This document shows, piece after piece, positions 28,869 through 42,636 of a DNA stretch of 64,000 nucleotides. Every line of letters begins with the position of its first letter. Position 1 is the first letter of the stretch. The translations under genes were made by a program, and so were the position numbers. Origin of the DNA: Candidatus Lindowbacteria bacterium RIFCSPLOWO2_12_FULL_62_27. Lineage in GTDB: Bacteria; Lindowbacteria; 2-12-FULL-62-27. Below the pieces are notes generated by a model. That model had not been told where the DNA came from and searched no databases. It worked only from the letters and a program-made list of their open reading frames with translations. The stretch spans positions 163,955 through 227,954 of the forward strand of contig MFPR01000028.1 of the NCBI GenBank assembly GCA_001784175.1, given 5' to 3'.

Positions 28869-31432
28869 GTTCCGCCCTCTGCCAGGTCGTGGTTAACGCG
28901 CCGCTCGGTAGGAAACTGCTCGCCTACGAATGCCCGCCCGCATCCGGTCCCCTCCGGCCAGGCGACGCGGTGGTCGTCCCGCTCGGTAGCCGCGAATGCG
29001 CCGGCTGGGTCATTCGAACGGACATTTCCGTGTCCGAACTCGAGATCGCAGGCCCGCTAAAATCAATCATCGAAAAAATCGAGGGCGGCGGAGTCCGTCC
29101 TGAAGATCTCCGGCTTTGCGAAGCGATGCACGCCTGGTATGGAACAAATTTTCCCGATATTTTGTCCCTTTTTGTTCCACCGGTGGCGCCCAAACTCGTC
29201 CGCCGGATCGTCCAGGTCCTCGACGCTCCCCCCACGGGTCTGTCTCCCGCCGCGGCGCAACTGGCGGAGTTGGTCCAACAAGCCGGCGGGAAAATGGACG
29301 TGCGCAGAGCCAAAACGGCATTCGGCGCGAAACCGGCGTCCGCGTTTCAGTCCGCCCTTCAGGAACTGACCTCAGCCGCAGCGTATGCCGTTCGGCCGGA
29401 ATTGTTGAGCACAACGCCCAGGCAAAAAAAATTTCTAGGTCCAGTGCAACTTCCATCGGGCCGGACCGATCTTTCCGCAAGCGAAAAAATGGTCCTGACG
29501 CTCGCCGATCAACATCCCTGGCAATACGGCGTCGCGGAACTCGCCGGACTTGCTCAAACCTCGACCCACGTCGTTCGTTCGCTGGTGGCCCGGAGGCTTC
29601 TTCTGGAACGCGCAAGCCGGAAATGGCGGACGCCCCTCGAACGGGACGATGTGGCGCAGGTGTCCGCGCCCGAAGTCGTCCCGACGCCCAGCCAGGCCCG
29701 GGCGATCGGCGAGCTGGTCCCGGCCGTCCGGGACCAAACCGGAGAGTTTTTCCTTCTGTATGGACCCACCGCTTCCGGTAAGACGCACGTGTATGAGGCG
29801 GCGGCCAAGGAGGCTCTGAGGCTGGGCCGGCAGGTGCTGCTCATGGTTCCGGAAATCGCGCTGACGCGGCCCTTGATCGAGCGCATCCGCCGCACGATCC
29901 ACGAACCGGTCGCGGTCGTTCACAGCCGCCAGACCCCGGCCGAACGCAGGGACGAATGGGAACGCTCGTCGACGGGCGAAGCGCGTCTGCTCGTCGGCCC
30001 GCGGTCGGCCGCGTTCGTGCCTTTGCCGGAGATCGGCCTTGCGATCATCGACGAATGCCACGACGCGGGATACAAGCAGTCCGAATCGCCCTATCTGGAC
30101 GCGCGCCGCGTGGTGGAAGAAAAGTGCGCCATCACGCGGGCGCCGCTCATCGTCGGATCCGCCACGCCCGCGGTCGAACAATGGCACGAGGCGGAGGCTG
30201 CGGGAGGGCCTCGGTACAGGCGGCTCGATCTCACCGAGTTTCCCACCCGCGTCAGCCGACCCGTTGTTTCCATCGTCGATCTTGGAAAGTTGCCGGCATC
30301 GAAACCGCAGACCGACCTGGACCGCGTGTGCCGGCAGAGTTTCCTGTCTCCGGTCCTCCAGGGCCTCATCGAAGAAACGCTGGCCCGGCGGCAAGCTTGC
30401 GTCCTCCTGATGAATCGCCGTGGATTTGCGCCGCAGATCCTATGCCCGGCCTGTGGCCACACGGAAACATGCGGCGACTGCCTCATGGCCATGGTCTACC
30501 ACGCCCAGGACCGCCAAATCTCTTGCCACGGCTGCGGCGCCCGCCGCAACCCCCCGGCCGCCTGTCCGGCCTGCGCGTATGCCCCCCTGGGATATATGGG
30601 CGCCGGCACGGAGCGGATCGTGGAGGCGTGCCGGGCCAGGTTCCCGTCGGCGCGCGTCGCCCGGCTGGATCAGGATTCTTTTCGGAAAAACCGCCGGAGG
30701 GCCTTCGAAACCCTGGAGGACCTCAAAAATGGCCGGCTGGATATTTTAATCGGAACTCAGATGATCGCCAAAGGGTTGGATGTTGAGCACGTGTCCCTTT
30801 CCGCCGTGATTCTCGCCGATGTTGGCCTCAACATGCCCGATTACAGGGCGAGAGAGAAAACCTTTCAGCTTCTGGCGCAACTGATCGGCCGGTCCGGCCG
30901 GCACGGAATCCCGGGCCGCGCCGTGCTTCAGACGTTCCAACCGGCATCTCCCGCGATCGTACTCAGCGCACAGGAAGAGGCGCCGCGGTTCGTTGAGAGC
31001 GAGCTGGAATCGAGAAAAGCGGGCCACTGGCCGCCGTTTTTCCGGATCCTCCGGATCGTATCCCAAAGCTCAAACGCGCCTAGGGCACTGCAGGTCATCA
31101 GGAAGATATATGAGCATATGACAAGTATGGACTTCCTCTCCCCCCGGAGGGGGGAGAGGAATGAGGTGAGGGGGGTGGACGGTGACGACGAGAGTCTGCC
31201 ACCCTCACCCCAACCCTCTCCCGCCGGAGGCGGGAGAGGGGAGGGCATGATTGTATCCCCCCCCCTGCCTTGCGTTAGAGCGAAATGGAAGGGCGAATAC
31301 CGGTTTCAGATCATCGCCCGCCTTCCCTGGCAGGCGCCCGTGCCGCATGGACTGCTGGACGAGATCGTGAGCCGTTATCGCACGGCCGGCGTGAAAATCA
31401 TGACGGAGCCGGATCCCGTTTCGCTCCTGTAG
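28865..31432 (+). CDS. priA: Primosomal protein N'
   Basis: GPTASGKT, VPEIAL, DECH, NRRG, four CxxC pairs, GTQMIAKG, GRSGR. Confidence 0.95.
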   Translation: MSSALCQVVVNAPLGRKLLAYECPPASGPLRPGDAVVVPLGSRECAGWVIRTDISVSELEIAGPLKSIIEKIEGGGVRPEDLRLCEAMHAWYGTNFPDILSLFVPPVAPKLVRRIVQVLDAPPTGLSPAAAQLAELVQQAGGKMDVRRAKTAFGAKPASAFQSALQELTSAAAYAVRPELLSTTPRQKKFLGPVQLPSGRTDLSASEKMVLTLADQHPWQYGVAELAGLAQTSTHVVRSLVARRLLLERASRKWRTPLERDDVAQVSAPEVVPTPSQARAIGELVPAVRDQTGEFFLLYGPTASGKTHVYEAAAKEALRLGRQVLLMVPEIALTRPLIERIRRTIHEPVAVVHSRQTPAERRDEWERSSTGEARLLVGPRSAAFVPLPEIGLAIIDECHDAGYKQSESPYLDARRVVEEKCAITRAPLIVGSATPAVEQWHEAEAAGGPRYRRLDLTEFPTRVSRPVVSIVDLGKLPASKPQTDLDRVCRQSFLSPVLQGLIEETLARRQACVLLMNRRGFAPQILCPACGHTETCGDCLMAMVYHAQDRQISCHGCGARRNPPAACPACAYAPLGYMGAGTERIVEACRARFPSARVARLDQDSFRKNRRRAFETLEDLKNGRLDILIGTQMIAKGLDVEHVSLSAVILADVGLNMPDYRAREKTFQLLAQLIGRSGRHGIPGRAVLQTFQPASPAIVLSAQEEAPRFVESELESRKAGHWPPFFRILRIVSQSSNAPRALQVIRKIYEHMTSMDFLSPRRGERNEVRGVDGDDESLPPSPQPSPAGGGRGEGMIVSPPLPCVRAKWKGEYRFQIIARLPWQAPVPHGLLDEIVSRYRTAGVKIMTEPDPVSLL
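31133..31241. repeat. Two inverted REP-like palindromic elements, in-frame in priA
   Basis: 31133-31175 (minus orientation) and 31202-31241 CCCTCACCCCAACCCTCTCCCGCCGGAGGCGGGAGAGGG. Confidence 0.8.
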
Positions 31433-31508
31433 AACCCTCTAAAGGCCTTTCTCACCTAAAACTGACCTAAAGGCGGCTCCCCGGATCGCCGAAAAAGACG
31501 GTAATGAA

Positions 31509-31587
31509 GTGGGTCATTTTATCATAGGATTTTTAGACTTGACCAATTTATCAGGAACCATCGCCCCACGTGGGTCATTTTATCATA
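31509..31587. repeat. 18-bp direct repeat, candidate activator sites
   Basis: GTGGGTCATTTTATCATA at 31509-31526 and 31570-31587. Confidence 0.85.
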
Positions 31588-31705
31588 AGCTGATTACTTT
31601 TTGCCTGTTAAGTCAGGTTATCCACATGGTTTGAGAGTAGCGAGGCAAACGTAACAACCAGACTTTCAAGCTATAGAATTAAAGGGCTTGAGCGCTGACA
31701 GGCAA

Positions 31706-31721
31706 AGGCACAGATTTTGCT
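31706..31721 (+). promoter_or_regulatory. Sigma54 (-24/-12) promoter candidate
   Basis: AGGCACAGATTTTGCT: GG-N10-GC with consensus flanks, ~70 bp before the ATG at 31790. Confidence 0.6.
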
Positions 31722-31789
31722 TGCTTTTCAGGTATCATAGCGATTTAACGAACTAATTTTGTTGATATTACGTGATGCAGGGAGAGAGG

Positions 31790-33328
31790 ATGAATCTCAA
31801 AATTGCCGCTGGATTGATCGCTATAACTGCCATTGTGCTGACTGCCACCATTGCAGGCGCGGAAGATCCTACGTTTATTGGGGCTTACGGAACGTTTTCC
31901 AACGCCAACCTTGCGATCGACGGGGACCCCGCCACATTCGCGGAAACCTCCAAAACCTACCGTAATGAGTATTTTCTGATCGTCCGATTCAACGCTCCTT
32001 CCGTCCTGCGTAACGTCAAGGTAAAGTTTGAAGGCAAGAAGCCCAAGGACTACCTCGTCGAAATGAGCATGGACGCTGTGGCTTGGAGGTCTTACGAAAT
32101 TGGCGAGAAGACGCTGTACATCCGGGTGAGAGTTCCCGGGGCCACGGACAACGATGTTTACCGGATCGCCGAGATCGAGTCCAAGTCCGACGTCGCCGGC
32201 TTGGAGCCTTTCGAGATGGTGCGCATGAATATCACCAACGTCGAAACCACGACGGCCACCTTGGAATTCACGTTCAATAAACCGGCCCGGCTGTCCATGT
32301 CATACGGGTTGGATGCCAATCCCAGTAATCACAAGAATTTCACGGAATACACCTCGTACATGACGAACTACACGCTCCGCCAGACGGACCTGATTGAGGG
32401 CGCGGACTACTATTTCCGGATCAAGGCCATCACGGCCGAGGGCGAGGTTTTCGTGCCATCTGAAACTGAGGCCTTGCCGCACTTCCGAACCCTCGGGACA
32501 CCTCCGCTTTCTTTGCTATCCGTGGGTGTCGGGTATGTCAGCCCCTTGTCGCTGTCGATCGTCGTTCGGACCAATATTCCCTCCAATTGCGTTTTCTATT
32601 TCGGCGAGCAGGTCTATTTCACCGACGTTCGGAGCAAACCCACGTTCGACACCACGCACGTCTTTGAGTTCAAGGACCTGGTGCCGAATCATCTCTATTC
32701 TTATATGGCCTTCCTGACCGACTTCCGGGGTCTGAATGTGAACATCCAAAAGCGGTTCATCACGACAACCGCCGTGAACATCGCCAGGAACAAGCGCGTG
32801 ATCGCCGGGACCTTCACACAGCAGCGCGAGTCCAATTTCCAGGGCGGCGGACTCGTGAAGGGCGACACGACCATGCAGAAATTGACGGACGGCAAGAACG
32901 ACTATTTTAACGGCATGGCGCATTCCGAAAACCTGATCAAGTACGACCAGTGGGCCGTCATCGATCTCGGCAAAGTCTATACTCTGGAAAGCCATGCGAC
33001 CGTGTGGCGCACACTCGCGTATCCTTACACCTACCAGCTCCTCGCGTCCGAGGACAACAGAACATGGAAGCAGGTCTTCACCATGAATCCTCAGCGCATG
33101 GGCGCCGGCGAAAAAATCCGGTCCGGCGGTGGCGACCCGCTCCTTGTGGCGGGGGGACCCCTGGAGCAGGCGAAGGCCCGTTACGTCAAATTGTTCATTC
33201 CGAAGGGCACCGAATTCTTCAAGCGTCACAAGACTTGGTACAACGTGGACCTCGCGGAGATCATGATCTATCCGGGCGGAGACTACGCCGAAATCAAACG
33301 GATCGTCGAGGAGGAATGGCAGCCTTGA
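31790..33328 (+). CDS. Secreted protein with discoidin (F5/8 type C)-like and FN3-like domains
   Basis: Signal peptide; LAIDGD..T and WAVIDLG..ARYVKL discoidin motifs; L..G..YYFRIKA FN3 pattern. Confidence 0.7.
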   Translation: MNLKIAAGLIAITAIVLTATIAGAEDPTFIGAYGTFSNANLAIDGDPATFAETSKTYRNEYFLIVRFNAPSVLRNVKVKFEGKKPKDYLVEMSMDAVAWRSYEIGEKTLYIRVRVPGATDNDVYRIAEIESKSDVAGLEPFEMVRMNITNVETTTATLEFTFNKPARLSMSYGLDANPSNHKNFTEYTSYMTNYTLRQTDLIEGADYYFRIKAITAEGEVFVPSETEALPHFRTLGTPPLSLLSVGVGYVSPLSLSIVVRTNIPSNCVFYFGEQVYFTDVRSKPTFDTTHVFEFKDLVPNHLYSYMAFLTDFRGLNVNIQKRFITTTAVNIARNKRVIAGTFTQQRESNFQGGGLVKGDTTMQKLTDGKNDYFNGMAHSENLIKYDQWAVIDLGKVYTLESHATVWRTLAYPYTYQLLASEDNRTWKQVFTMNPQRMGAGEKIRSGGGDPLLVAGGPLEQAKARYVKLFIPKGTEFFKRHKTWYNVDLAEIMIYPGGDYAEIKRIVEEEWQP

Positions 33329-33485
33329 ATACATTATTCGGAAATATCCTGAACATGTTTCAGTTGTTTCAGTATCCACACCACACAATCGGCTCGCCTG
33401 ACGGCAGCCTGCGCATAGATCAAGACTTGTCCGGGCGACTTTCGCACCGGATGGGCGAAACTCTAATTTAGGAGGCCAAGAAGTT

Positions 33486-35132
33486 ATGAAATCTTTCGTC
33501 AAAGGATTAATGCTTGTGGCGATCATGGCGTGGGTGATGCTCGCGCTGTCGGATATGCCGGCCATGGCATGGTTTGACGCCGACACAGCATCGCGCGTTG
33601 ACACCTCGTATGCCGCCACCGACATCGACACCATCATTCAAAGCGGTATCCCCGGTGACGGTCTGGAAGGCGCCGCCGATGAAACCAGTGCGGGACGTTT
33701 GTGGGTTACCTATGTCAAGACCAACGGACAGAAGACCAGCGCCCAGAAGACGGGTACGCAGTACGACACGTATGTGTCCGACACGGTGCTGGGTGTGCCG
33801 ACAGGCATGCTGAGCATTCAGTGGGCCTATGACAATGACAGCCGCCAGCGCCAGTTCGCCCCGCCATTGGAGGGCTTTACCGGATGGGTCGGCAACAACA
33901 CGAAGATGGAGAAACTGCCGCGTGACACGCAGTGGGTGTTGCCGGAGAGCGGCGAAACCGTGCCGCTGGATGACCAACTCTGCTTTTTGGTCATTGAAAC
34001 CGCCGACACCGGGTCGGTCAAGCTCAACATCGTCAACACCAGCAACTACGCCTGTTCGTTCGTCCTGCTGGTCAACTTCCCGGACACCGATTTCAACGTC
34101 GGCCAAGTCCCGCAGGGCGCGAAATGGCTCACGGAGGGATCGAGCCTTCGGGACCGCTTTATTGTCAGCGTCGGCCAGAATGCCGACTCCGGCAACGGTC
34201 TGGACGGCAACCGCCTGGACACCATCTCGGTGCAAGGCACCGTCGTGAAGATTGACGCGCACATCAACAGCGTGCTCCTGGCGGAAGAAGCGGAGACACA
34301 ACTCTGGTTGCGATTCGCCGCCGATACGAGCGCCGCGGCTCGAGACTCGATGAGCGTCACCGTCCAGCTCATTGGTGACACGGAATACGGCGGCCTTCAG
34401 TGGGGCACGAGTCGCCACACCCGTATCTTTCACGACAGCGGGTACTACGGCGACAACGACACCCACTACGGCGAAGGCGGCTCCTCGGATTCGGTGTCGA
34501 TCTTCGTGCTGGTGGCGACCGCGATCGTGCGGGTCAAGAAGACCGACTCGGTCTTCGCCCCCACCAGTTATGTCAACGTGACCGCAAGTAGAATTTTCGG
34601 AGACACGGCCCAGCGCGAGCGCGACACAGTGCCCGGCGCGACCATCATCTACGAGATAACCTATGATAACGATGGAAACCGCCGAGCGGACACCGTCGAC
34701 ATCATAGACTTTTTGGACAGCAACGTCGACTTTGCGATCGACACGATCAACTCCCGGTGGGATACGACGTATTTCAACACCGGCGTCGACACGCGTATGA
34801 CGCATGCGCGGCCCGCCAACGCGGACACGTATGTCTACGTTGCGTTCAGTTTGCGCGGAACGCCGTCCGTGTTCGGCGAAACGCAGGTCAACTTTAACGC
34901 GATTGGCAACGGGAAATCCACCGTTGAGACGGTCGCAGCCGTTCGGATTCGCTGGAACCCAGCGACGAACAACGATGCGGCTCTCAGGCGCGACCAGATT
35001 GACGAGCCGGCGGGCAACTCGACCGCCACGTGGGATCCGCTCGACAGGGTGGAGAGCTGCACCATTTTGACCACCGCCAACAGCGACAGCGGCGACTGCG
35101 GCCGGATTCGCTACCACGTAGTGATCCGGTAA
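33486..35132 (+). CDS. Secreted DT-rich surface protein with DUF11-like C-terminal module (paralog 1)
   Basis: RBS AGGAGG; signal peptide PAMA; VRVKKTD..PGATIIYEITYDNDG; ends RYHVVIR. Confidence 0.85.
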   Translation: MKSFVKGLMLVAIMAWVMLALSDMPAMAWFDADTASRVDTSYAATDIDTIIQSGIPGDGLEGAADETSAGRLWVTYVKTNGQKTSAQKTGTQYDTYVSDTVLGVPTGMLSIQWAYDNDSRQRQFAPPLEGFTGWVGNNTKMEKLPRDTQWVLPESGETVPLDDQLCFLVIETADTGSVKLNIVNTSNYACSFVLLVNFPDTDFNVGQVPQGAKWLTEGSSLRDRFIVSVGQNADSGNGLDGNRLDTISVQGTVVKIDAHINSVLLAEEAETQLWLRFAADTSAAARDSMSVTVQLIGDTEYGGLQWGTSRHTRIFHDSGYYGDNDTHYGEGGSSDSVSIFVLVATAIVRVKKTDSVFAPTSYVNVTASRIFGDTAQRERDTVPGATIIYEITYDNDGNRRADTVDIIDFLDSNVDFAIDTINSRWDTTYFNTGVDTRMTHARPANADTYVYVAFSLRGTPSVFGETQVNFNAIGNGKSTVETVAAVRIRWNPATNNDAALRRDQIDEPAGNSTATWDPLDRVESCTILTTANSDSGDCGRIRYHVVIR

Positions 35133-36389
35133 TCCAGCATGGAGGAGACGGTATCGACAGAGCGTAGAGCATAACCACACGCGTCGTTCGAAAGCGACAG
35201 GCCAATGCGCCCCAAAAGGGCCGGCCAGGCCTGTCACGCGGAGAATGGACGCAGAACGGAGCGGCAAAGATGGTTCCAGTTGGAGATCGATCACCCTCGG
35301 AAGGTGGTGATGGGCCGAAAGGCTGAAGGACAACCGAGGGCGTTGGTTGAAACGCCGGGAGAGAGTGTCCAAGACGGGGATGTTCCAGGCCACGAGGTCG
35401 GTAAGCGCCTCGCATGCGCGTGGAGTGTCCACCCCGTGGGCTCTGTAGACCCGGCACAACGACGGAACCTGTTTTGTGTTGCTTCGATCTGCGCAAGCAG
35501 TACATTCTTCCACGCTGACAGGGCTGTGGACGGTGCTAGACCTAATTTAACCGAGGGATCGGGGTCGGTGAGTACGATGGACCCGGTTTCCGGAGCGACG
35601 ACGGACACGCGGAACATCCGTGTCCCAGCTTCCATTACCGCCGGCCAAGCCTCCGGCCGGGCGGTAGGGTATGAGTTTCGTTCCGAACGTCTTGATCAAT
35701 GTGAGCGTTCAGCGATGGTCCAATCCCATCGATCCACGCTTCGAGATCGGGCGGCGCGGACATCCCGGAGGTATTTTCCCCGCCATCTGTTTTACCTTCG
35801 ATACCGCCTCAGACAAGCCATGACTTTTGCTCATGGCATGGGTCTGGGATCTCGTCGTGGTTTGTCCCTGGGGGCAACGGGGGCGGAAACAGAGAGCGGC
35901 CTCATGGAGAGAGGTGATGTGAGACTGCGATAGAGGATGCCGGCCGGCGAGATGCGGCCGAGAAAAACAAATACAGGTACGGCCTCCTAACTTGGATGTA
36001 TCAAGGGTTCAAATCCCGAATACATGCCGTAGGGGAGAGGAACCTAGGGAATATTGCTGGCCCTGCGACGCAGGTTGGAACGCGGGGAATATTCCCAACA
36101 TATTGAGAGCGTAAAAGCTCTCAGCGAAGTCGGTGAGGTGAGGCTGCGCGTTCGGTAGGTCTGCGCAGCAGATACCAGGCCGCAGTCGATGTGGATAGTT
36201 TACACGCAAAGTCCTTCAAGACTTTGAGCGGAGAGAGTCTGTCCCCAACGGCTGACGAGACTTAGCAGGGTAAAGGTCTTGCCCCTGATGGCGGGCAAGG
36301 TGAGCGAAGCGATTGACCGCTTTGCATAGGAAAGGTGTTGCCCAATGAGATTGACGAAGGCGAACGATAATAAGGAGGAATATAAGGGT
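35133..36389 (+). ncRNA. Candidate large structured RNA (unassigned)
   Basis: 1.25 kb without a credible ORF; dense hairpins with GNRA loops and G-U pairs in + orientation; T-loop hairpin at ~36005-36017; long-range complementarity to other spacers. Confidence 0.6.
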
Positions 36390-37802
36390 TTGTTAAAGTT
36401 ATTCCTACAGCGGAATAACTTCACGCCCCTCGTCTGCCTCCTCGCCTTCGGACTTGTTTCGCTCTTCATCCTTCCGGCGAACGCCGTTTTCTTCAACTAC
36501 AGCTCCGGCAGCACCGGCGCCTACAACACCGACTCCGGCACAGCCATTCGCAGCGAGGGCCAATCGAGCGCGATCACCCCGACGCCCGGATCGTTCGGCC
36601 TGACCTACTACCGCGCGAACGTCAAGGTTGCGGCCAACACCGACACGCGCTACGGCGTCGTCGGGCCGGCGGATTCGAGCAGTCCGCGGGTCAAGGCGAT
36701 CTACGGCGATACGCTGTCCGTCCTTTCCGGGCCTTCCACGCCGAACGACACGGTCGTCATCGCCGGCACGTCCGACTTCGACACCGTTTACCTCACGGCC
36801 GACACCGCCGTTTCCGGCGATGTCCTGACTTACGTCCTCGCCGTCACCAATTACGGCAACGCCGCCGATACCATCGGCCTCATCGTCGACAGCGCCTGGA
36901 CCCGCGGCGCCGGCACCGATACGTCCACCGGCCGGTTCAGCTACCAGTTCTTCGACCGGACCGGCGCGGCTCTGACCGGGATCCTGACGCTGGCGCATCA
37001 GGACACGGCGAAGGTCGCGCTCAAGGCGGACACGGGCGTCGAGACCGCGAGCCTGAAGATTTACACCGCCGGCGCCTCCAACGCCGACACCGTCCGGATG
37101 TTCGTCCGGGCCTTCGCGAACAACGGCAGCGGCCGGGCCATGGCGACGAGCGGCGAGGTCGCGCCGTATGTGGGGTTGAACGGCGTCAAGTACGGCGGGA
37201 GCGGCAACGCCTCGACCTTCTTTGAGGTCACCGTCAGCGGGCCGCTGGTGCGGCTGGCCAAGTTCGACACGGTATTCGCGCCGGTGTCGCTGGGCGGCGC
37301 CACCGGCGCGGCCGTGGATGACACGCAGCACTACGTGCCCGGCGCGATGCTGGTCTATACGATCTGGTTCGACAACGACGGCAACGACACCGCCGACACG
37401 ATCGTCATCGAGGACTGGATCGACACGCGGCACCTGCGGTTTGACAGCGCCGGCCTTTCGCAACTGCGCGGCGTCGCGCAGATCGCGGCCTCCGGCGCGC
37501 TTGCGGACTCATTCTACGGAAACATTTATGCCGACAGCAGGATGCCGAACATCGGCGGGGCGGTCTTCAGCATATCGATCCAGTATTCCTCCGGCGGCGA
37601 CTCCTTTGCCGGATTGACGGAGGCCACGCCGCTCGAGTCGGTCGGCCGCTTGCGGTGGACGATCGGCCGGGTCGGCACGCGGGGCGTGGTGGGCGCGAAC
37701 AACGGCGACGATGTCGAGGCCGTCGACCTGCCGCCGGTTGCGGCGGGCGCGGCGTCCGACGTGGACATGGGCTACGTGCGCTTCGCGGTGGTGATCCGAT
37801 GA
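36390..37802 (+). CDS. Secreted DT-rich DUF11-like protein (paralog 2)
   Basis: TTG after TAAGGAGG; signal peptide PANA; VRLAKFD..PGAMLVYTIWFDNDG; ends RFAVVIR. Confidence 0.85.
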   Translation: MLKLFLQRNNFTPLVCLLAFGLVSLFILPANAVFFNYSSGSTGAYNTDSGTAIRSEGQSSAITPTPGSFGLTYYRANVKVAANTDTRYGVVGPADSSSPRVKAIYGDTLSVLSGPSTPNDTVVIAGTSDFDTVYLTADTAVSGDVLTYVLAVTNYGNAADTIGLIVDSAWTRGAGTDTSTGRFSYQFFDRTGAALTGILTLAHQDTAKVALKADTGVETASLKIYTAGASNADTVRMFVRAFANNGSGRAMATSGEVAPYVGLNGVKYGGSGNASTFFEVTVSGPLVRLAKFDTVFAPVSLGGATGAAVDDTQHYVPGAMLVYTIWFDNDGNDTADTIVIEDWIDTRHLRFDSAGLSQLRGVAQIAASGALADSFYGNIYADSRMPNIGGAVFSISIQYSSGGDSFAGLTEATPLESVGRLRWTIGRVGTRGVVGANNGDDVEAVDLPPVAAGAASDVDMGYVRFAVVIR

Positions 37803-40800
37803 TGGCCCTGCTGCGAGTCCTGATGGCGTCGATTGCGGTCGCGTTCGTGTTCATGACTGCGTTCGTCGGCGCGCCCGTTTGGGCGGATGACACGGCGAGC
37901 CTGTTCGGCCCGGTGCAGAAGACGACGCCGGGCGGGATGGGCCTGACGGCGACGGTGGCCGACGGCGTCGCGGTCACGACGCCGACGCAGGCGGGCGCGT
38001 ACTACTTCAAGATCAGCACAACGCTTGATTCGACCTACGCCCTGCGCACGGCGCTCAGTTCCTACGCCGCGCGCGTGGACACGATTCCGTACATCCGGCG
38101 GGTCGACACGATCTACAGCGACACGATCGGCCTCACGAGCGAGAACGTCGCGAGCGATCCGCTCAAGGACACGGGGCGGACCATCTTCAAGGGCGACACC
38201 GCGACCTACATCCTGGCGCTGACGAACCTCGGCAACTCGACCGATTCGATCGGCCTCGTGATCGACACCGCCACCGTCGACAGCTACGCCGGCGTGAACT
38301 TCGACACGATCCCGAACTGGTCCGCGCACTACTACGACTCGCGCGGCGTCCTCATCGGCAAGGCCTCCGGCCTGGACCGCGACACGGTCTTCATCCGCCT
38401 GTCGGCCGGCAAGTCGGAGACGGTCACGGTCAGGATCTACAGCGACTCGGCCGCCTGGGACACATCGTCCATTCAGCTTACGCTCGGGGCGTTTGCGGCG
38501 AACGGCAACCGGTACAAGTTCGCGGTTCGGGCCTACCGCGGATTCACGGGCGACACGTTCGGCGGGGATGGGCACGACTCGATCACGCTGTATGTGAAAC
38601 TCAAGGCGACGACGGTCCTGCGCGTCGCCCGCGCCGACACGGCGCTGTCCGTGTCGCTCGGCAGTCACGCGTCGGACGCGAACATCACCGACACGCAGCA
38701 TTTCGTGCCGGGCGCGATCGTGGTGCGGACGATCTGGTTTGACAACGACGACAGCTCGCCGGTCGACACGCAGGTGGTGGTCGAAGACTGGATCGACACG
38801 CGGTTCCTGCAGTTCAGCAGCGCCGGCGCCGGGGCCTTGGGCGCGGGCCAGACCGCCGCGTCGGGCGCGCTCGTCGCCGGCCAGTACGGAAACATCTTCG
38901 TCGACAGCGGCATGCCGAACAACATGACCGGCGCCACTCAGATCGACGTCCGCGTTGAATATCTAACCGGCGCCGGCTGGACGCAGCTTACGCAGGCGAT
39001 TCCGGCGTCGAGCGTCGGGCGGCTGCGCTGGACGATCACGCGCGTCGCCGGGACGGGGGCGCTGGTCGGCGCGACGAACGGCGACGGCGCGCTGGCGATC
39101 GATGCGGCGCCGGCGGCCTTCGGCGCGGCCACCGATTCCGACATGGGGTACGTCCGGTACTCGGTCGTGATCCGGAGCGACAGCAGCGCGGCGAAGGGTC
39201 CGGGGCGGCCGGAGTCGGGGGTTCTCGTCGGCATCAATCCGTCGGCCGCCGGGTTCGACTCGGCCTTCATCGAGCCTGACACGAAGGGTCTGAGCGCGCG
39301 GACAACCTTTGTGTCCGCACTGCTCGCCGAGTATCTGCCGAACGTCGACATCGTGCCGGAGACGCTGTCGGCCCAGAAGATCCAGCAGACCGCCGGCGAC
39401 ACGTTCTACTTCCCGCACCGGATTGGCAGCCACGGCAACGCGCCCGACAGCTTCGCGGTGAGCGGCACGACCACGATCGACGCCATCGGCGGCCGGGTCA
39501 CGTTCCTGCTTGACATCGGCAACGCCGGGTCGTTTGACGGATTCGAGCCGAAGCTCGATACCTTCACGCTCAACGGGTCGATGACCGACTCGAAGGACGT
39601 CCTGGTCGCCGTGTTTGTGCCCGCGGGATACTCCGGCCATGACACCGCCTATCTGCGGGTGGCGTCGGTCCGGAACCGCGCGTTCTACGACACGGGCACG
39701 GACGTGTTCCGGGTGGTCGGCGCATCGCAGGTGGCGCCGGACACGGCCCAGCCGCAGACGGTGGGATCGGGCGATTCGGTCTCGTTCACGTTCTTCCTGA
39801 ACGTTCCGCCGACGGAGGACACGATCATCCTCGTTCTGGATTCGCCGCCGCTTGGCGGCCCGGCAGCCGACTCGGTCGTCATCACGATTACCGAGTCCGG
39901 TACCGTGAAAGTGTCGGACAGTTCGGTCACGGTGACGCTCGATACGACCACCGGCCAGCTCACGATCACGTTCACGGAAACGCCGCGGTCCGACACGTAC
40001 GTGTGGCAGGTGACGGTCCAGGAGACGGACAGCGGCTCGATCAAGGTCACGTTCAGTGACAGCGGCCAGTTCATCATCGACACCGTGCCGCCGTTCGTCA
40101 CGGACACGAACCCGGCCCGGCTGTTCATTGTGGACACCACGCTGGTGGGCGCCGAGACGACGATCAGCATCCGGATCATGGATACGGCCCTCGGCGACAC
40201 GACGACCGGGATCGATTCGCTCGTCATCACGATCCTTGACACGGCCGGCACGGTGGTCCGGGTCGACACGATCGACGCCTACACGCTGTATCAGTTCCCG
40301 TTCGACACGAGCGGCGCCTTTACCGTGCAGGTCGTCGCGATCGACAACGCCGGCAACACCGTGGCCCTGCCCGACTCGCTGCCGGTCGTGATCCCGGTCA
40401 AGCGCGTGATCGACCTCGTGGCCGCCGACAAGTTCAGCGCGGAGGAGAAGGACGACGTGGCGAAGGGCCTGACGGCGCAGGGGATTGTGCGGGTGAAGGA
40501 TCCGGGCGCGAACAAGGACGGGACGAGCTTCGACCGGATCGAAGTCACCATCCTCTCGGACGCCGACCTCATCGGATTCACGCTGCAGCTCGACGAGACG
40601 TCGATCAACAGCGGGATGTTCCAGGGGACGCTTGGATTCACCAACGGCGTCACCAACGCCAACGCGAAGAAGATCAAGGTCCGCGACGGCAGCGTCATCA
40701 CCGCCAAGTATGACGCGGATGGCAGCGCCGGGCCGGTCGTGTTCATCGCGGACCAGATCGCGTGGCAGGGCGAGGTCATCAAGGATCTGGACCGCGTGCG

Positions 40801-41077
40801 GACGTGGCCCAATCCGTACAACCAGTTGACCGATCCGTGCGCCTACTTCCACAACCTCCCGTCGGATCCGCACATGACGATCGAGCTCTACAACCTGAAC
40901 GGCGAGATCGTCATGACGCTGCGGGTCGGCCAGGAGATCACCCACTCGGCGAACCAGAACCTCGGATGCTGGGACGGTCGGAACAGCCGCGGCCAGATGG
41001 TGTCCAGCGGCACGTACATTTACCTCGTGCGGTCGAGCGCCGGCACGAAGGTCGGAAAGATGACGATAGTGCACTAA
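37799..41077 (+). CDS. Large secreted DT-rich protein: DUF11-like module, Ig-like repeats, C-terminal T9SS-CTD/FlgD-like domain (paralog 3)
   Basis: Signal peptide PVWA; internal PGAIVVRTIWFDND..RYSVVIR; C-terminal WPNPY..IELYNLNGE..WDGRN..G..VSSGTYIY. Confidence 0.85.
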   Translation: MMALLRVLMASIAVAFVFMTAFVGAPVWADDTASLFGPVQKTTPGGMGLTATVADGVAVTTPTQAGAYYFKISTTLDSTYALRTALSSYAARVDTIPYIRRVDTIYSDTIGLTSENVASDPLKDTGRTIFKGDTATYILALTNLGNSTDSIGLVIDTATVDSYAGVNFDTIPNWSAHYYDSRGVLIGKASGLDRDTVFIRLSAGKSETVTVRIYSDSAAWDTSSIQLTLGAFAANGNRYKFAVRAYRGFTGDTFGGDGHDSITLYVKLKATTVLRVARADTALSVSLGSHASDANITDTQHFVPGAIVVRTIWFDNDDSSPVDTQVVVEDWIDTRFLQFSSAGAGALGAGQTAASGALVAGQYGNIFVDSGMPNNMTGATQIDVRVEYLTGAGWTQLTQAIPASSVGRLRWTITRVAGTGALVGATNGDGALAIDAAPAAFGAATDSDMGYVRYSVVIRSDSSAAKGPGRPESGVLVGINPSAAGFDSAFIEPDTKGLSARTTFVSALLAEYLPNVDIVPETLSAQKIQQTAGDTFYFPHRIGSHGNAPDSFAVSGTTTIDAIGGRVTFLLDIGNAGSFDGFEPKLDTFTLNGSMTDSKDVLVAVFVPAGYSGHDTAYLRVASVRNRAFYDTGTDVFRVVGASQVAPDTAQPQTVGSGDSVSFTFFLNVPPTEDTIILVLDSPPLGGPAADSVVITITESGTVKVSDSSVTVTLDTTTGQLTITFTETPRSDTYVWQVTVQETDSGSIKVTFSDSGQFIIDTVPPFVTDTNPARLFIVDTTLVGAETTISIRIMDTALGDTTTGIDSLVITILDTAGTVVRVDTIDAYTLYQFPFDTSGAFTVQVVAIDNAGNTVALPDSLPVVIPVKRVIDLVAADKFSAEEKDDVAKGLTAQGIVRVKDPGANKDGTSFDRIEVTILSDADLIGFTLQLDETSINSGMFQGTLGFTNGVTNANAKKIKVRDGSVITAKYDADGSAGPVVFIADQIAWQGEVIKDLDRVRTWPNPYNQLTDPCAYFHNLPSDPHMTIELYNLNGEIVMTLRVGQEITHSANQNLGCWDGRNSRGQMVSSGTYIYLVRSSAGTKVGKMTIVH

Positions 41078-41130
41078 TGCCCGCTTGGAGCGGGATAGAT
41101 CGGGCCAGGAAAACGAAAGAGGTGATGTGT

Positions 41131-42636
41131 ATGAACCAGGGGAAGAAGTTGAAAGGGGCACTGAGGGAGTACGGCCTGCTGTGGACGTACTATCTCCTTG
41201 TATTAACAGTGCTGATTGTCGCGTCGCGGCCGGCGATGGGGGCGTCGACCGGCACGACGGGCGCGCCGTTTCTGAAGATTTCGGTCGGGTCCCGGCCGGC
41301 GGCGATGGGGTCGGCCTACACGGCCGTGGCGGAGGAGCCGTATGCGCTCCATTACAACCCCGCGTCGATCGGCCACATGGACCGGTGGGACCTGTCGGCC
41401 ATGCACCAGGACCAGTTCGGCGAGGTGAGCTTCGACTATTTCGGGCTTGCCGCGCCCGCGATCAAGAACCGTTCCGGCTGGGGGATGTCGTTCGTCCGCA
41501 TGGCGGTGGACGACTTCTCCCGGACGGAACTGGACGACGGCGTCAAGTTCACGAACGCGGACATGGCGCTGACGGCGACGTATGCGCACCGGATCTTCAA
41601 GCCGCTCAGCTTGGGCGTGAGCGGCAAGCTGATCAAGCAGACGCTGGCGCAGTACACGGCGAACGGCTGGGCCGTGGATTTTGGAGCGCATCTCAAAGTG
41701 AACCCGCGCCTGTCCCTGGGCGCGTCCATTATGAATATCGGCCCCGACATCACCTTCATCGCGATCGGCGATCCCCTGCCGACGACCCTCCGCGCGGGCG
41801 GCGCATTGAAGCTCCTGCCGCGGGGAAACCTCCTGGCCACGATGGATTACTGGATGCCGAAAGACGACGCGAAGGGATTCGGCATGGGCGTCGAGTATCG
41901 TCCGAGCCGGTTTCTGGCGTTTCGCGGCGGCTATCAACTTGGCACGTCGTTCCGCGGATTCAACGCGTCCTCTTTTGGATTGACCTTTGATTTTGACAAT
42001 TTCGGAATCGAATACGCGTTTGTTCCGCGCGAGAAGCTGGGCGACGTGCATCGCGCGGGTCTGAACGTTTCGTTTGGCGGGAAGAAGCCGGAAGTCATCG
42101 CGCAGCGGAAGCGGGATGTGCGCCGGAAGGAAACCGTGCGGCGCCCGCAGCGCGAGCCGGCCGTTCAGTCGGTGTCGGTGCGCGCGGAGAAAGCGCCGGC
42201 GCCGAGCGTGCCGGTGGCGGCGCCGGTGGCCGCGCCGGTTGAGCAAGAGGTACCGGCGTGGAAGAGCGTGCTGGCGGAGAGCGGAGAAGGAACGTGGGCG
42301 GTGGCGGCGCAAGAGGAAAGATCGGCGAAGGAATCAGCGCCGGCAGAGGCGCCTGTCTCACCGGCGCCGGCGCAGGAGGAAAGGCCGGCATCGGCGTCCA
42401 CGGAAGCGATCGTTCAGGAGAAACTCTCGATCGCATCAGGGCTGCTCCGGGATCAGCGGTATGAAGAGGCGGTGGCGATCATTCGCAGCGGACTGAAGGA
42501 AGATCCTCGGAACGTCCCGCTCTGGTACCTGCTGTCGGAGAGTCTGTACAAAATCGGCGAGTATGACGAGGCGATGGAAGCGGTGAACAGGGCGCTGACC
42601 CTGATTCACAGCGGACGGGGTGGCATAGCTCCATAA
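41131..42636 (+). CDS. PorV/PorQ-like outer-membrane barrel with C-terminal TPR
   Basis: APFLKISVGSRPAAMGSAYTAVAE..ALHYNPA N-terminal motif; barrel strands; Pro/Ala linker; TPR. Confidence 0.8.
   Translation: MNQGKKLKGALREYGLLWTYYLLVLTVLIVASRPAMGASTGTTGAPFLKISVGSRPAAMGSAYTAVAEEPYALHYNPASIGHMDRWDLSAMHQDQFGEVSFDYFGLAAPAIKNRSGWGMSFVRMAVDDFSRTELDDGVKFTNADMALTATYAHRIFKPLSLGVSGKLIKQTLAQYTANGWAVDFGAHLKVNPRLSLGASIMNIGPDITFIAIGDPLPTTLRAGGALKLLPRGNLLATMDYWMPKDDAKGFGMGVEYRPSRFLAFRGGYQLGTSFRGFNASSFGLTFDFDNFGIEYAFVPREKLGDVHRAGLNVSFGGKKPEVIAQRKRDVRRKETVRRPQREPAVQSVSVRAEKAPAPSVPVAAPVAAPVEQEVPAWKSVLAESGEGTWAVAAQEERSAKESAPAEAPVSPAPAQEERPASASTEAIVQEKLSIASGLLRDQRYEEAVAIIRSGLKEDPRNVPLWYLLSESLYKIGEYDEAMEAVNRALTLIHSGRGGIAP

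Follow-up and report, generated by a model that had tools for sequence, protein, structure and literature searches.

A conserved interval between paralogous DUF11 genes of Lindowbacteria: an open frame, a 3′ RNA fold and a possible intercistronic leader

In Candidatus Lindowbacteria bacterium RIFCSPLOWO2_12_FULL_62_27, two genes for DUF11 surface proteins are separated by an interval that holds both a long open reading frame (ORF), here called ORFX, and conserved RNA structure. The interval, 35133-36344 on the + strand, sits between two + strand genes. All coordinates are those of the window, the 64,000-nucleotide (nt) stretch that was analysed; the source genome is denoted G000 and three relatives G001 to G003. 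The main elements of the locus are as follows.

33486-35132, + strand: upstream gene, 548 residues, weak DUF11 match
35175-35933, + strand: ORFX, stop-free over 252 codons (242 from the AUG at 35205), about 760 nt
36345-37802, + strand: downstream gene, 485 residues, DUF11 repeats

A sequence-only reading had proposed a new large structured RNA, non-coding and continuous over 1.25 kb. The region is probably not one free-standing 1.25-kb non-coding RNA; it looks like two modules, the first (35133-35933) containing ORFX and the second (about 35980-36420) a fold that runs into the downstream gene. What stands of the proposal is a conserved structured RNA that matches no Rfam 15 family; what does not is its unity. 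The term non-coding fits only about 35934-36344, since an ORF at 35205-35933 is open in all four genomes.

Conservation and folding of the interval

The two flanking genes are paralogous (29% identity over 239 residues, E-value 1e-13), and VVIR ends both proteins. When 61 genomes were searched at the DNA level, the region turned up in G000 and in all three other members of its family, each assigned to a different genus, but in none of the remaining 57. The phylum is represented by only four genomes in the set searched, and the element is present in all of them, at one copy per genome and with an identical order of flanking genes. The spacers measure 1212, 1544, 1579 and 1277 nt, and the flanking genes are about 65-70% identical in DNA among the four genera. 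Among the 26 metagenome loci returned by pattern scans, only L031, identical to G002, is homologous; the 23 genome loci contain no homologue beyond the three known relatives.

Alignment A1 of the four spacers consists of invariant patches between unalignable stretches, with length differences of up to 200 nt. Invariant patches of 19-26 nt are kept across genera. The conserved patches are these.

35141-35147, 35162-35235, 35517-35535, hairpin C with GCCTCCGG, 35713-35740, 35986-36040, 36104-36150 and 36259-36344, all + strand: conserved patches of alignment A1

The stems that the sequence-only reading had listed were all found, each within a base or two of the place given for it. Confirmed stems are the following.

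35196-35203/35228-35235, + strand: stem
35603-35609/35619-35625, + strand: stem
35636-35642/35660-35666, + strand: stem
35817-35823/35831-35837, + strand: stem
35996-36001/36020-36025, + strand: stem around GGG-TTCAAAT-CCC
36047-36055/36088-36096, + strand: stem
36104-36110/36117-36123, + strand: stem
36278-36284/36293-36299, + strand: stem

A 13-nt long-range stem drawn between 35145-57 and 35798-810 is not conserved: it is present in G000 and has no counterpart at the equivalent place in the other three genomes. The density of hairpins, which had also been claimed, depends on the comparison made. Counting perfect Watson-Crick hairpins with a stem of at least 6 and a loop of 3-40, the interval has 17, against 9.1 ± 2.9 in dinucleotide shuffles (17 was reached by 1 of 200), but equally long flanking coding stretches have 21 and 17. 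Since flanking coding sequence equals or exceeds the count, hairpin density is not distinctive in this GC-rich genome.

With 150-nt windows, the mean folding z-score is about -2.0 on the + strand of the region (17 windows, all of them negative) and -1.2 on its - strand, while the + strands of the flanking coding sequences give -1.2 and -0.65, a moderate excess. The strongest values fall at 36000-36224 (-4.8, -2.7) and 36300-36449 (-4.0); module 1 does little better than flanking coding sequence. The minimum free energy of the whole region is -520.4 kcal/mol on the + strand and -447.8 kcal/mol on the - strand, making the + strand, in which G exceeds C, 73 kcal/mol more stable.

These data bear on the possibility of a neutral spacer, or of a third paralogue of the neighbours that has decayed, with hairpins arising by chance. 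Hairpin counts equal to those of coding sequence, and the paralogy of the neighbours, would suit such an origin. However, patches of the above length are invariant among genera whose flanking genes have diverged to 65-70% identity, and a common helix architecture, described below, is found in all four genomes; this explanation can hardly be correct. Decay from a paralogue was rejected separately, the ORFX profile being unrelated to the flanking paralogues (hhalign probability 0.2%).

The covariance-model search that the sequence-only reading had called for gave no family match. At gathering thresholds, the only Rfam 15 match in the whole window is a tRNA at 337-419. With E-values up to 10, the segment 34900-36600 gives four matches, all with E-values of at least 4.2 and with 14.8-17.2 bits against gathering thresholds of 50-73; with E-values up to 0.1, the three relatives' loci give 16 matches, none inside the homologous spacers. 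The stated lack of RNase P, tmRNA and T-box signatures is likewise borne out. The RNase P RNA of the genome lies on a different contig (G000:C4:99517-99916, RF00010, 212.4 bits) and no RNase P match falls in the region, ARAGORN finds no tRNA or tmRNA gene in 34900-36600, by which a tRNA-like or tmRNA identity was rejected, and no T-box family matches. Among the papers found to mention Lindowbacteria, none appears to deal with RNAs of the phylum, and the name occurs in no title or abstract.

The open frame and its RNA motifs

ORFX begins directly after an invariant TAA (35172-35174) and continues without a stop for 252, 354, 385 and 289 codons in the four genomes, with a conserved AUG (35205) near its start and its end 53-111 nt before module 2 in every case. 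Within the span, stops in frames 0/+1/+2 number 0/7/10, 0/10/14, 0/9/12 and 0/9/9; beyond it they occur in all three frames. Long spurious frames are common in this genome, and the frame was therefore tested against shuffles and across genomes. A frame of the observed length was reached by 2, 0, 0 and 4 of 1000 dinucleotide shuffles. Across genomes, the anchors B, GCCTCCGG (C) and hairpin D keep one codon phase in all four, with spacing that differs by tens to hundreds of bases; past the end of the ORF, the phases of anchors T, E, F and G are scattered. One other long frame, of 668 residues and with no Pfam match, lies at 33507-35513 on the - strand, antisense to the upstream DUF11 gene.

The distance from the upstream stop to the invariant TAA (35130-35174 and its homologues) is 13, 12, 13 and 12 codons, and the long frame is in phase with the upstream gene in all four genomes. 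Readthrough from that gene into the frame was considered and is unlikely, as two stops intervene (TAA or TGA, then the invariant TAA).

Of the traits looked for in a coding gene, ORFX has the conserved open frame, and neither coding signatures nor a family or fold. Third codon positions have a G+C content of 0.57-0.65 in its four copies, whereas ten real genes from these loci have 0.72-0.90. By codon position, the copies show differences of 0.35/0.27/0.29, from only 106 alignable columns, as compared with 0.32/0.23/0.51 and 0.30/0.23/0.375 in the flanking genes. When the three frames were translated with stops as X and semi-global BLOSUM62 scores were summed over the six genome pairs, frames 0/+1/+2 of ORFX scored 430/381/386, and those of the flanking genes 6114/2023/1744 and 7468/4055/3949. 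Frame 0 of ORFX thus aligns no better than the other two, and it follows that the similarity among the copies is at the nucleotide level. The sequence-only reading had named conservation of this ORF as evidence that would tell against a non-coding RNA; openness and phase are conserved in all four genomes, the protein sequence is not.

The conserved content of module 1 and of the linker behind it is as follows.

35141-35147, + strand: GGAGGAG box, 9 nt after the upstream DUF11 stop; core AGGAG invariant in 4/4 genomes (alignment A1 columns A11-G15)
35162-35180, + strand: invariant patch GCGTAGAGCNTAACCACAC, with a small GUAGA-loop hairpin; the long frame opens at its in-frame TAA (35172-35174)
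35196-35235, + strand: 5′ hairpin GACAGGCC / GGCCUGUC around GCCC-loop-GGGC, predicted in 4/4 genomes
35517-35535, + strand: patch B GACAGGGCTGTGGACGGTG, conserved at the nucleotide level
35636-35666, + strand: hairpin C, with a stem that differs in each of the four genomes and a loop with conserved GCCUCC
35713-35731, + strand: hairpin D, CGAUGG-UCCAAUC-CCAUCG, predicted in 4/4 genomes
35941-35977, + strand: GC-rich hairpin (35941-35960) and then an A-rich linker, joining the end of ORFX to the 3′ module

In the GUAGA-loop hairpin, the pair beside GC/GC is A-U in G001, G-C in G002 and a mismatch in G000 and G003. The stems of the 5′ hairpin are nearly invariant and its loop is variable (CAAAA, GUUAA, CACAA); the conserved AUG (35205-35207) lies in its internal loop. 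The closing pair of hairpin D is C-G in three genomes and U-A in G003. In the minimum-free-energy fold of hairpin C, CCUCC is in the loop in three of the four genomes, with a weak folding z-score (mean -0.6). Its CCUCC (35650-35654) could pair with the GGAGGAG box: in three of four genomes, the C region ranks in the top four as a duplex partner for the 5′ end. The candidate pairing amounts to only five invariant pairs and hence carries no covariation signal to read. A hairpin of differing sequence followed by an A-rich run is visible by eye at the position of the linker in all four genomes. The hairpin at 35941-35960 is not a terminator by the terminator scan, and a processing site or a promoter is a guess for the segment.

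Several of these elements are also what a protein comparison picks up. The motif MCPxRAGQAC is the 5′ hairpin, with its variable residue at the loop, DRAVDG is patch B, and SMVxSHR is hairpin D. In the codons of patch B (GAC AGG GCT GTG GAC GGT), the third letter changes in 1 of 18 comparisons, counted manually in the alignment, and AGG, GCT and GGT are rare codons for this genome by its third-position composition.

The chief alternative for module 1 is that ORFX is an ordinary gene, for a fast-evolving, arginine-rich, disordered orphan protein with short linear motifs, and that the last 410 nt or so of the interval are a structured 5′ untranslated region. The frame, open and in phase in 4/4 genomes and ending 53-111 nt before module 2 in each, agrees with this. 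So do predicted proteins of at least six further lineages: a word-indexed search gave six matches and an exhaustive profile search 11, for 12 ORFX-like proteins combined, of which ten share the start M-[CR]-P-x-R-A-G, and FFHADRAVDG, GQASG and SSMVxSHRVTF recur among them. However, protein databases hold open frames only, and the extra lineages are accordingly a biased sample. One of these proteins, the metagenome-derived P0011, reads the hairpin D motif in frame +1; either a frameshift truly occurred there, with the nucleotides kept, or the assembly is wrong. The failure of frame 0 to align better than the other frames, the flat third-position composition and the lack of a third-position excess (in 106 columns) argue against an ordinary gene, as do motifs that are invariant at third positions, use rare codons and coincide with RNA hairpins. 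ORFX has no Pfam or NCBIfam match, AlphaFold2 predicts no fold (mean predicted local distance difference test 35.5; 0 of 242 residues at 50 or above), and a profile search of 1.84 billion representatives finds no relative outside this group. By our own estimate, the arginine content is about what base composition leads one to expect. We regard a real protein as unlikely, though it is an alternative to be taken seriously.

The 3′ fold and its junction with the downstream gene

Each anchor-delimited piece of the 3′ part was folded on its own for every genome, and the predictions, made independently, agree on the order of helices in all four. The elements are listed here from 5′ to 3′.

35980-36040, + strand: D3a, in which a stem of CUUCCCU or CCUCCU with AGGGGAG closes a junction and the T-loop hairpin, which has its outer stem at 35996-36001/36020-36025 and its loop at 36008-36014
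36047-36096, + strand: V1, variable insert hairpin, of 58, 81 and 35 nt and unrelated sequence in three genomes; absent in G002
36104-36182, + strand: D3b, with hairpin H2, invariant GCGAAGUCGG and then three stacked helices, Pb/Pa/H3
36182-36258, + strand: V2, variable hairpin, of 77, 38, 38 and 40 nt and unrelated sequence, in 4/4 genomes
36259-36344, + strand: D3c, with GACUU, H5 (36278-36299), H6 (36304-36325) and helix J
36268-36273 with 36338-36343, + strand: helix J, GGGUAA with UUGCCC just before the AUG, predicted in 3/4 genomes
36331-36337, + strand: Shine-Dalgarno-like AAAGGUG, in the single strand of the last junction, before the AUG at 36345
36369-36419, + strand: conserved RNA inside codons 9-25 of the downstream gene, AAUAAGGAGGAAUAUAA and then a hairpin, GUUAUUCC (36398-36405)/GGAAUAAC (36412-36419)

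The T-loop hairpin, already singled out in the sequence-only reading, proves to be the clearest compensatory stem of the region. Its outer stem reads AUGUAU/AUACAU, GAUCACA/UGUGAUC, GUCC/GGGC and GCUUUU/GAAGGC in the different genomes. A T-loop motif sits on a G-C stem and has a hairpin loop whose first position is U and whose fifth is A. The 7-nt loops found here, UUCAAAU, UUCGAUU, UCGUAUU and UCCCAUA on GGG/CCC (GG/CC in G001), have U and A at these two positions in all four genomes, and the sequence pattern as a whole is present in each.

Several other helices also vary in sequence and keep their predicted pairing. H2 is GAGAGC/GCUCUC in two genomes, GGGAGC/GCUCUC, with a G-U pair, in G002, and AGCGUCC/GGACGCU in G003. 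Pa occurs as GGUG/UACC, GGU/ACU and GGGU/ACCC, H5 has four sequence variants, and H6 is either GCGAAGCG/CGCUUUGC or GCAAAACG/CGUUUUGC. In total, the stems that differ on both strands and still pair are the T-loop outer stem, H2, H5, H6, Pa, V1 and V2. The mean z-scores of the + strand over the genomes are -2.2 for D3a, -4.2 for V1, -3.6 for D3b, -1.8 for V2 and -1.8 for D3c; on the - strand D3c scores about the same and the other four pieces score more weakly. The covariance model R1, built for D3b, finds one strong copy per genome in all four (75.6-103.6 bits), and everything else has an E-value above 0.03. Its re-alignment is gapless, kept a wrong register and took up two noise matches from the window (E-values 0.036 and 0.039), and pairs were not counted from it. 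Likewise, the RNAalifold consensus of a MAFFT sub-alignment was wrong, hairpins of unequal length being out of register. By these predictions, the well-supported fold is one of about 440 nt.

The fold does not stop at the ribosome-binding site. The Shine-Dalgarno-like AAAGGUG is mostly unpaired in the predicted ensembles, and the most conserved run of the whole locus is the stretch of codons 9-25 of the downstream gene, in which rare A/T-ending codons (TTA, CTA, AAT, TAT) are invariant in 4/4 genomes. The hairpin at 36398-36419, with a perfect 8-bp stem, is predicted in all four, its pairing kept through U-G wobble changes. The first 25 codons of the gene also contain a strong Shine-Dalgarno-like AAGGAGGAA, after which there is no conserved start codon; a partner for the CCUCC loop of hairpin C, through GGAGG at 36373-36377, and a pause site are candidate roles for this box.

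Alternative helices can be drawn in D3c. GACUU could pair with either of two segments, the invariant AAGUC or AAGGUCU, and in G000 GGGCAAG (36293-36299) is able to pair with CUUGCCC or with a UUGCCC copy. Alternative pairings in D3c are comparable in G001 and G003, and not clear in G002. Further, AAAGGUCUUGCCC (36272-36284) nearly repeats AAAGGUGUUGCCC (36331-36343). The second copy of this near-identical direct repeat (AAAGGTCTTGCCC at 36272-36284, AAAGGTGTTGCCC at 36331-36343) is the downstream ribosome-binding region.

A scan of 33000-38200 turned up neither terminator-like sites, on either strand, nor a sigma-70-like promoter on the + strand, although the promoter type of the phylum may differ. 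In all four genomes the fold lies on the strand of the downstream gene, directly upstream of its ribosome-binding site and contiguous with it. Since it abuts that site and enters the coding sequence, it resembles a cis-acting leader and not a separate RNA gene.

A possible intercistronic leader

We tentatively prefer, at somewhat less than even confidence, to view the interval as an intercistronic leader that acts in cis, its upstream part being translated as nothing more than a spacer. A single mRNA would span both paralogous DUF11 genes, with the interval as its intercistronic part; genes on one strand and no terminator-like site in 33000-38200 favour a leader over a free RNA. The data establish the synteny, the conserved motifs and helices, a frame that is open and in phase, and a lack of constraint at the protein level; co-transcription, translation of the frame and any regulatory role are what we infer.

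In outline, the leader might work as follows. Module 1 would offer a conserved hairpin holding the AUG and then a frame of 250-385 codons that ribosomes probably traverse, since selection keeps it stop-free and in phase. The ORFX peptide itself would be without information, the conserved content being presumably RNA motifs, namely patch B, the CCUCC-loop hairpin C and hairpin D. Module 2 is predicted to form a folded leader of about 440 nt, with the T-loop junction, the three-helix stack behind GCGAAGUCGG and two variable inserts, and to end in a three-way junction at the ribosome-binding site, followed by the Shine-Dalgarno-like box and the hairpin within the first 25 codons. Most likely it sets the translation of the downstream gene, the stability of its message, or both, either by binding a factor or by a switch between alternative helices, for which GACUU with AAGUC or AAGGUCU, and GGGCAAG with CUUGCCC or the UUGCCC copy, are candidates.

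The sequence-only reading had instead placed the region in the size range of the giant RNAs GOLLD, ROOL and OLE. Like these, the element extends over hundreds of nt or more and has many hairpins, conserved single-stranded patches and variable insert hairpins. The comparison is nevertheless not supported: the fold, of about 440 nt, abuts a ribosome-binding site, and some 760 nt are an open frame. GOLLD, ROOL and OLE are free-standing RNAs. In contrast, the element is wedged between two genes, enters a ribosome-binding site, has an open frame over 60% of its length and is known from one small phylum only; it has no covariance-model match to these families or to HEARO. Could the whole 1.2-1.6 kb still be one free-standing giant structured non-coding RNA, with the open frame incidental? 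Conserved motifs and hairpins along the full length, the more stable folding of the + strand, negative z-scores in 17 of 17 windows and the lack of a known family would be in keeping with it. On the other hand, openness and phase of the frame go far beyond chance in four genomes with unalignable intervening sequence, no promoter- or terminator-like sites bound the element, and the fold continues through the ribosome-binding site into coding sequence. The middle part, moreover, has z-scores near those of coding sequence, and the long-range stem between the 5′ and 3′ parts is not conserved. We consider this improbable.

A leader offers one analogy. T-box leaders, large riboswitches and the stabilising 5′ untranslated regions of outer-membrane protein messages also lie on the strand of a gene, upstream of its start and overlapping it, and long cis-regulatory leaders share the multi-helix fold, possible alternative helices beside a Shine-Dalgarno sequence and the T-loop motif. 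Unlike them, module 2 alone, at about 440 nt, is longer than is typical. No T-box or riboswitch family matches, and the element is preceded by a long open frame, where those families occupy a promoter-proximal 5′ end. Structured RNAs that also hold a frame read by ribosomes provide a second analogy. They include leader-ORF attenuators, such as that with the TnaC (tnaC) leader peptide, and dual-function RNAs, such as SgrS/SgrT and RNAIII/hld; in leader-ORF systems the act of translation itself counts. The frames of known leader ORFs and small-RNA peptides are tens of codons long, whereas that of ORFX has 250-385 codons and no conserved peptide.

Several observations weigh against the leader as we picture it. 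Among the sequencing runs searched, none recorded as RNA contains the stretch. The only possible RNA trace is a single 166-nt contig from runs X9 and X10 of one sample, labelled metatranscriptomic and flagged 'probably DNA'; it is identical to 36008-36173, the core of module 2, and as a sign of expression it is a weak hint at most, while the stretches these runs leave uncovered carry no weight as evidence. Efficient translation of the frame is made less likely by the setting of its AUG (35205), inside a stable hairpin and without an obvious Shine-Dalgarno sequence. Nor is protection from Rho by translation clearly needed, as Rho loads at C-rich sites and the strand here is G-rich. The first codon position has a G fraction of 0.37 in each of the four genomes, a weak excess that would fit a real gene too and is the only coding-like trait of ORFX besides its openness. 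The near-coding z-scores of module 1, already described, belong here as well, and the switch helices of D3c are seen in only two or three of the four genomes. Finally, compensatory changes were read by eye from printed folds of only four DNA sequences, too few for a covariation statistic.

The position of the element allows one more proposal, that module 2 or the 5′ hairpin acts on RNA polymerase as a processive antitermination RNA, for read-through to distal genes. Intra-operon antitermination RNAs, for example the eps-associated RNA of Bacillales and the phage put RNA, are of about 70-120 nt. A structured RNA between genes of a surface-structure operon is common to both cases, and here the row of + strand surface and secretion genes is operon-like; position is all that speaks for the proposal. 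There is no similarity to those RNAs, in Rfam or otherwise, no terminators to overcome are predicted in 33000-38200, and nothing links the element to the polymerase. We judge it highly improbable.

Some features of the neighbourhood may be added. In the part of the window from 37655 to 42636, a 1140-residue protein has a C-terminus with weak, sub-threshold matches to PorU and to a type IX sorting tail; another protein, of the PorV/PorQ family, carries fused TPR repeats. By their similarity, these matches suggest a type IX-like sorting system in the phylum. At 31400-31999, in the spacer before an F5/8-type gene, the GC content falls to 0.44-0.47 from the 0.6-0.7 usual in the window. The segment L011:6072-6190 of G003, which has the F5/8-type gene on one side and the upstream DUF11 gene on the other, is a nearly perfect hairpin of about 100 nt, with sub-threshold matches to many microRNA-precursor models on both strands.

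Returning to the leader, it is tempting to go further and to propose a giant bifunctional one, in which a frame of 250-385 codons would encode nothing, translation itself would be the function, and this would be coupled to a new T-loop fold, about 440 nt long, as the gate of a surface-protein gene linked to type IX sorting. The act of translation might then remodel or protect the RNA motifs strung along the frame. This extended form is quite unlikely as a whole.

At this locus two usual tests for a gene conflict: the frame is conserved and in phase, and nothing else about it is coding-like. Gene callers have filed ORFX as a hypothetical protein in several assemblies. If the frame is in fact a real protein, it would be a disordered orphan of an extreme kind, with RNA structure laid over its coding sequence; if it is translated only as a spacer, this would be an unusual way to carry a kilobase of regulatory RNA inside an operon. 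The element is a new candidate for a structured RNA, matching no Rfam 15 family, from a phylum with only four genomes in the set searched, and on either reading of the frame the segment 35980-36420 is a defined target for the study of how a surface-protein gene is controlled. Should the bifunctional proposal prove true, it would mean that selection on translation as such, with no regard to the product, can be enough to keep a long bacterial frame open.

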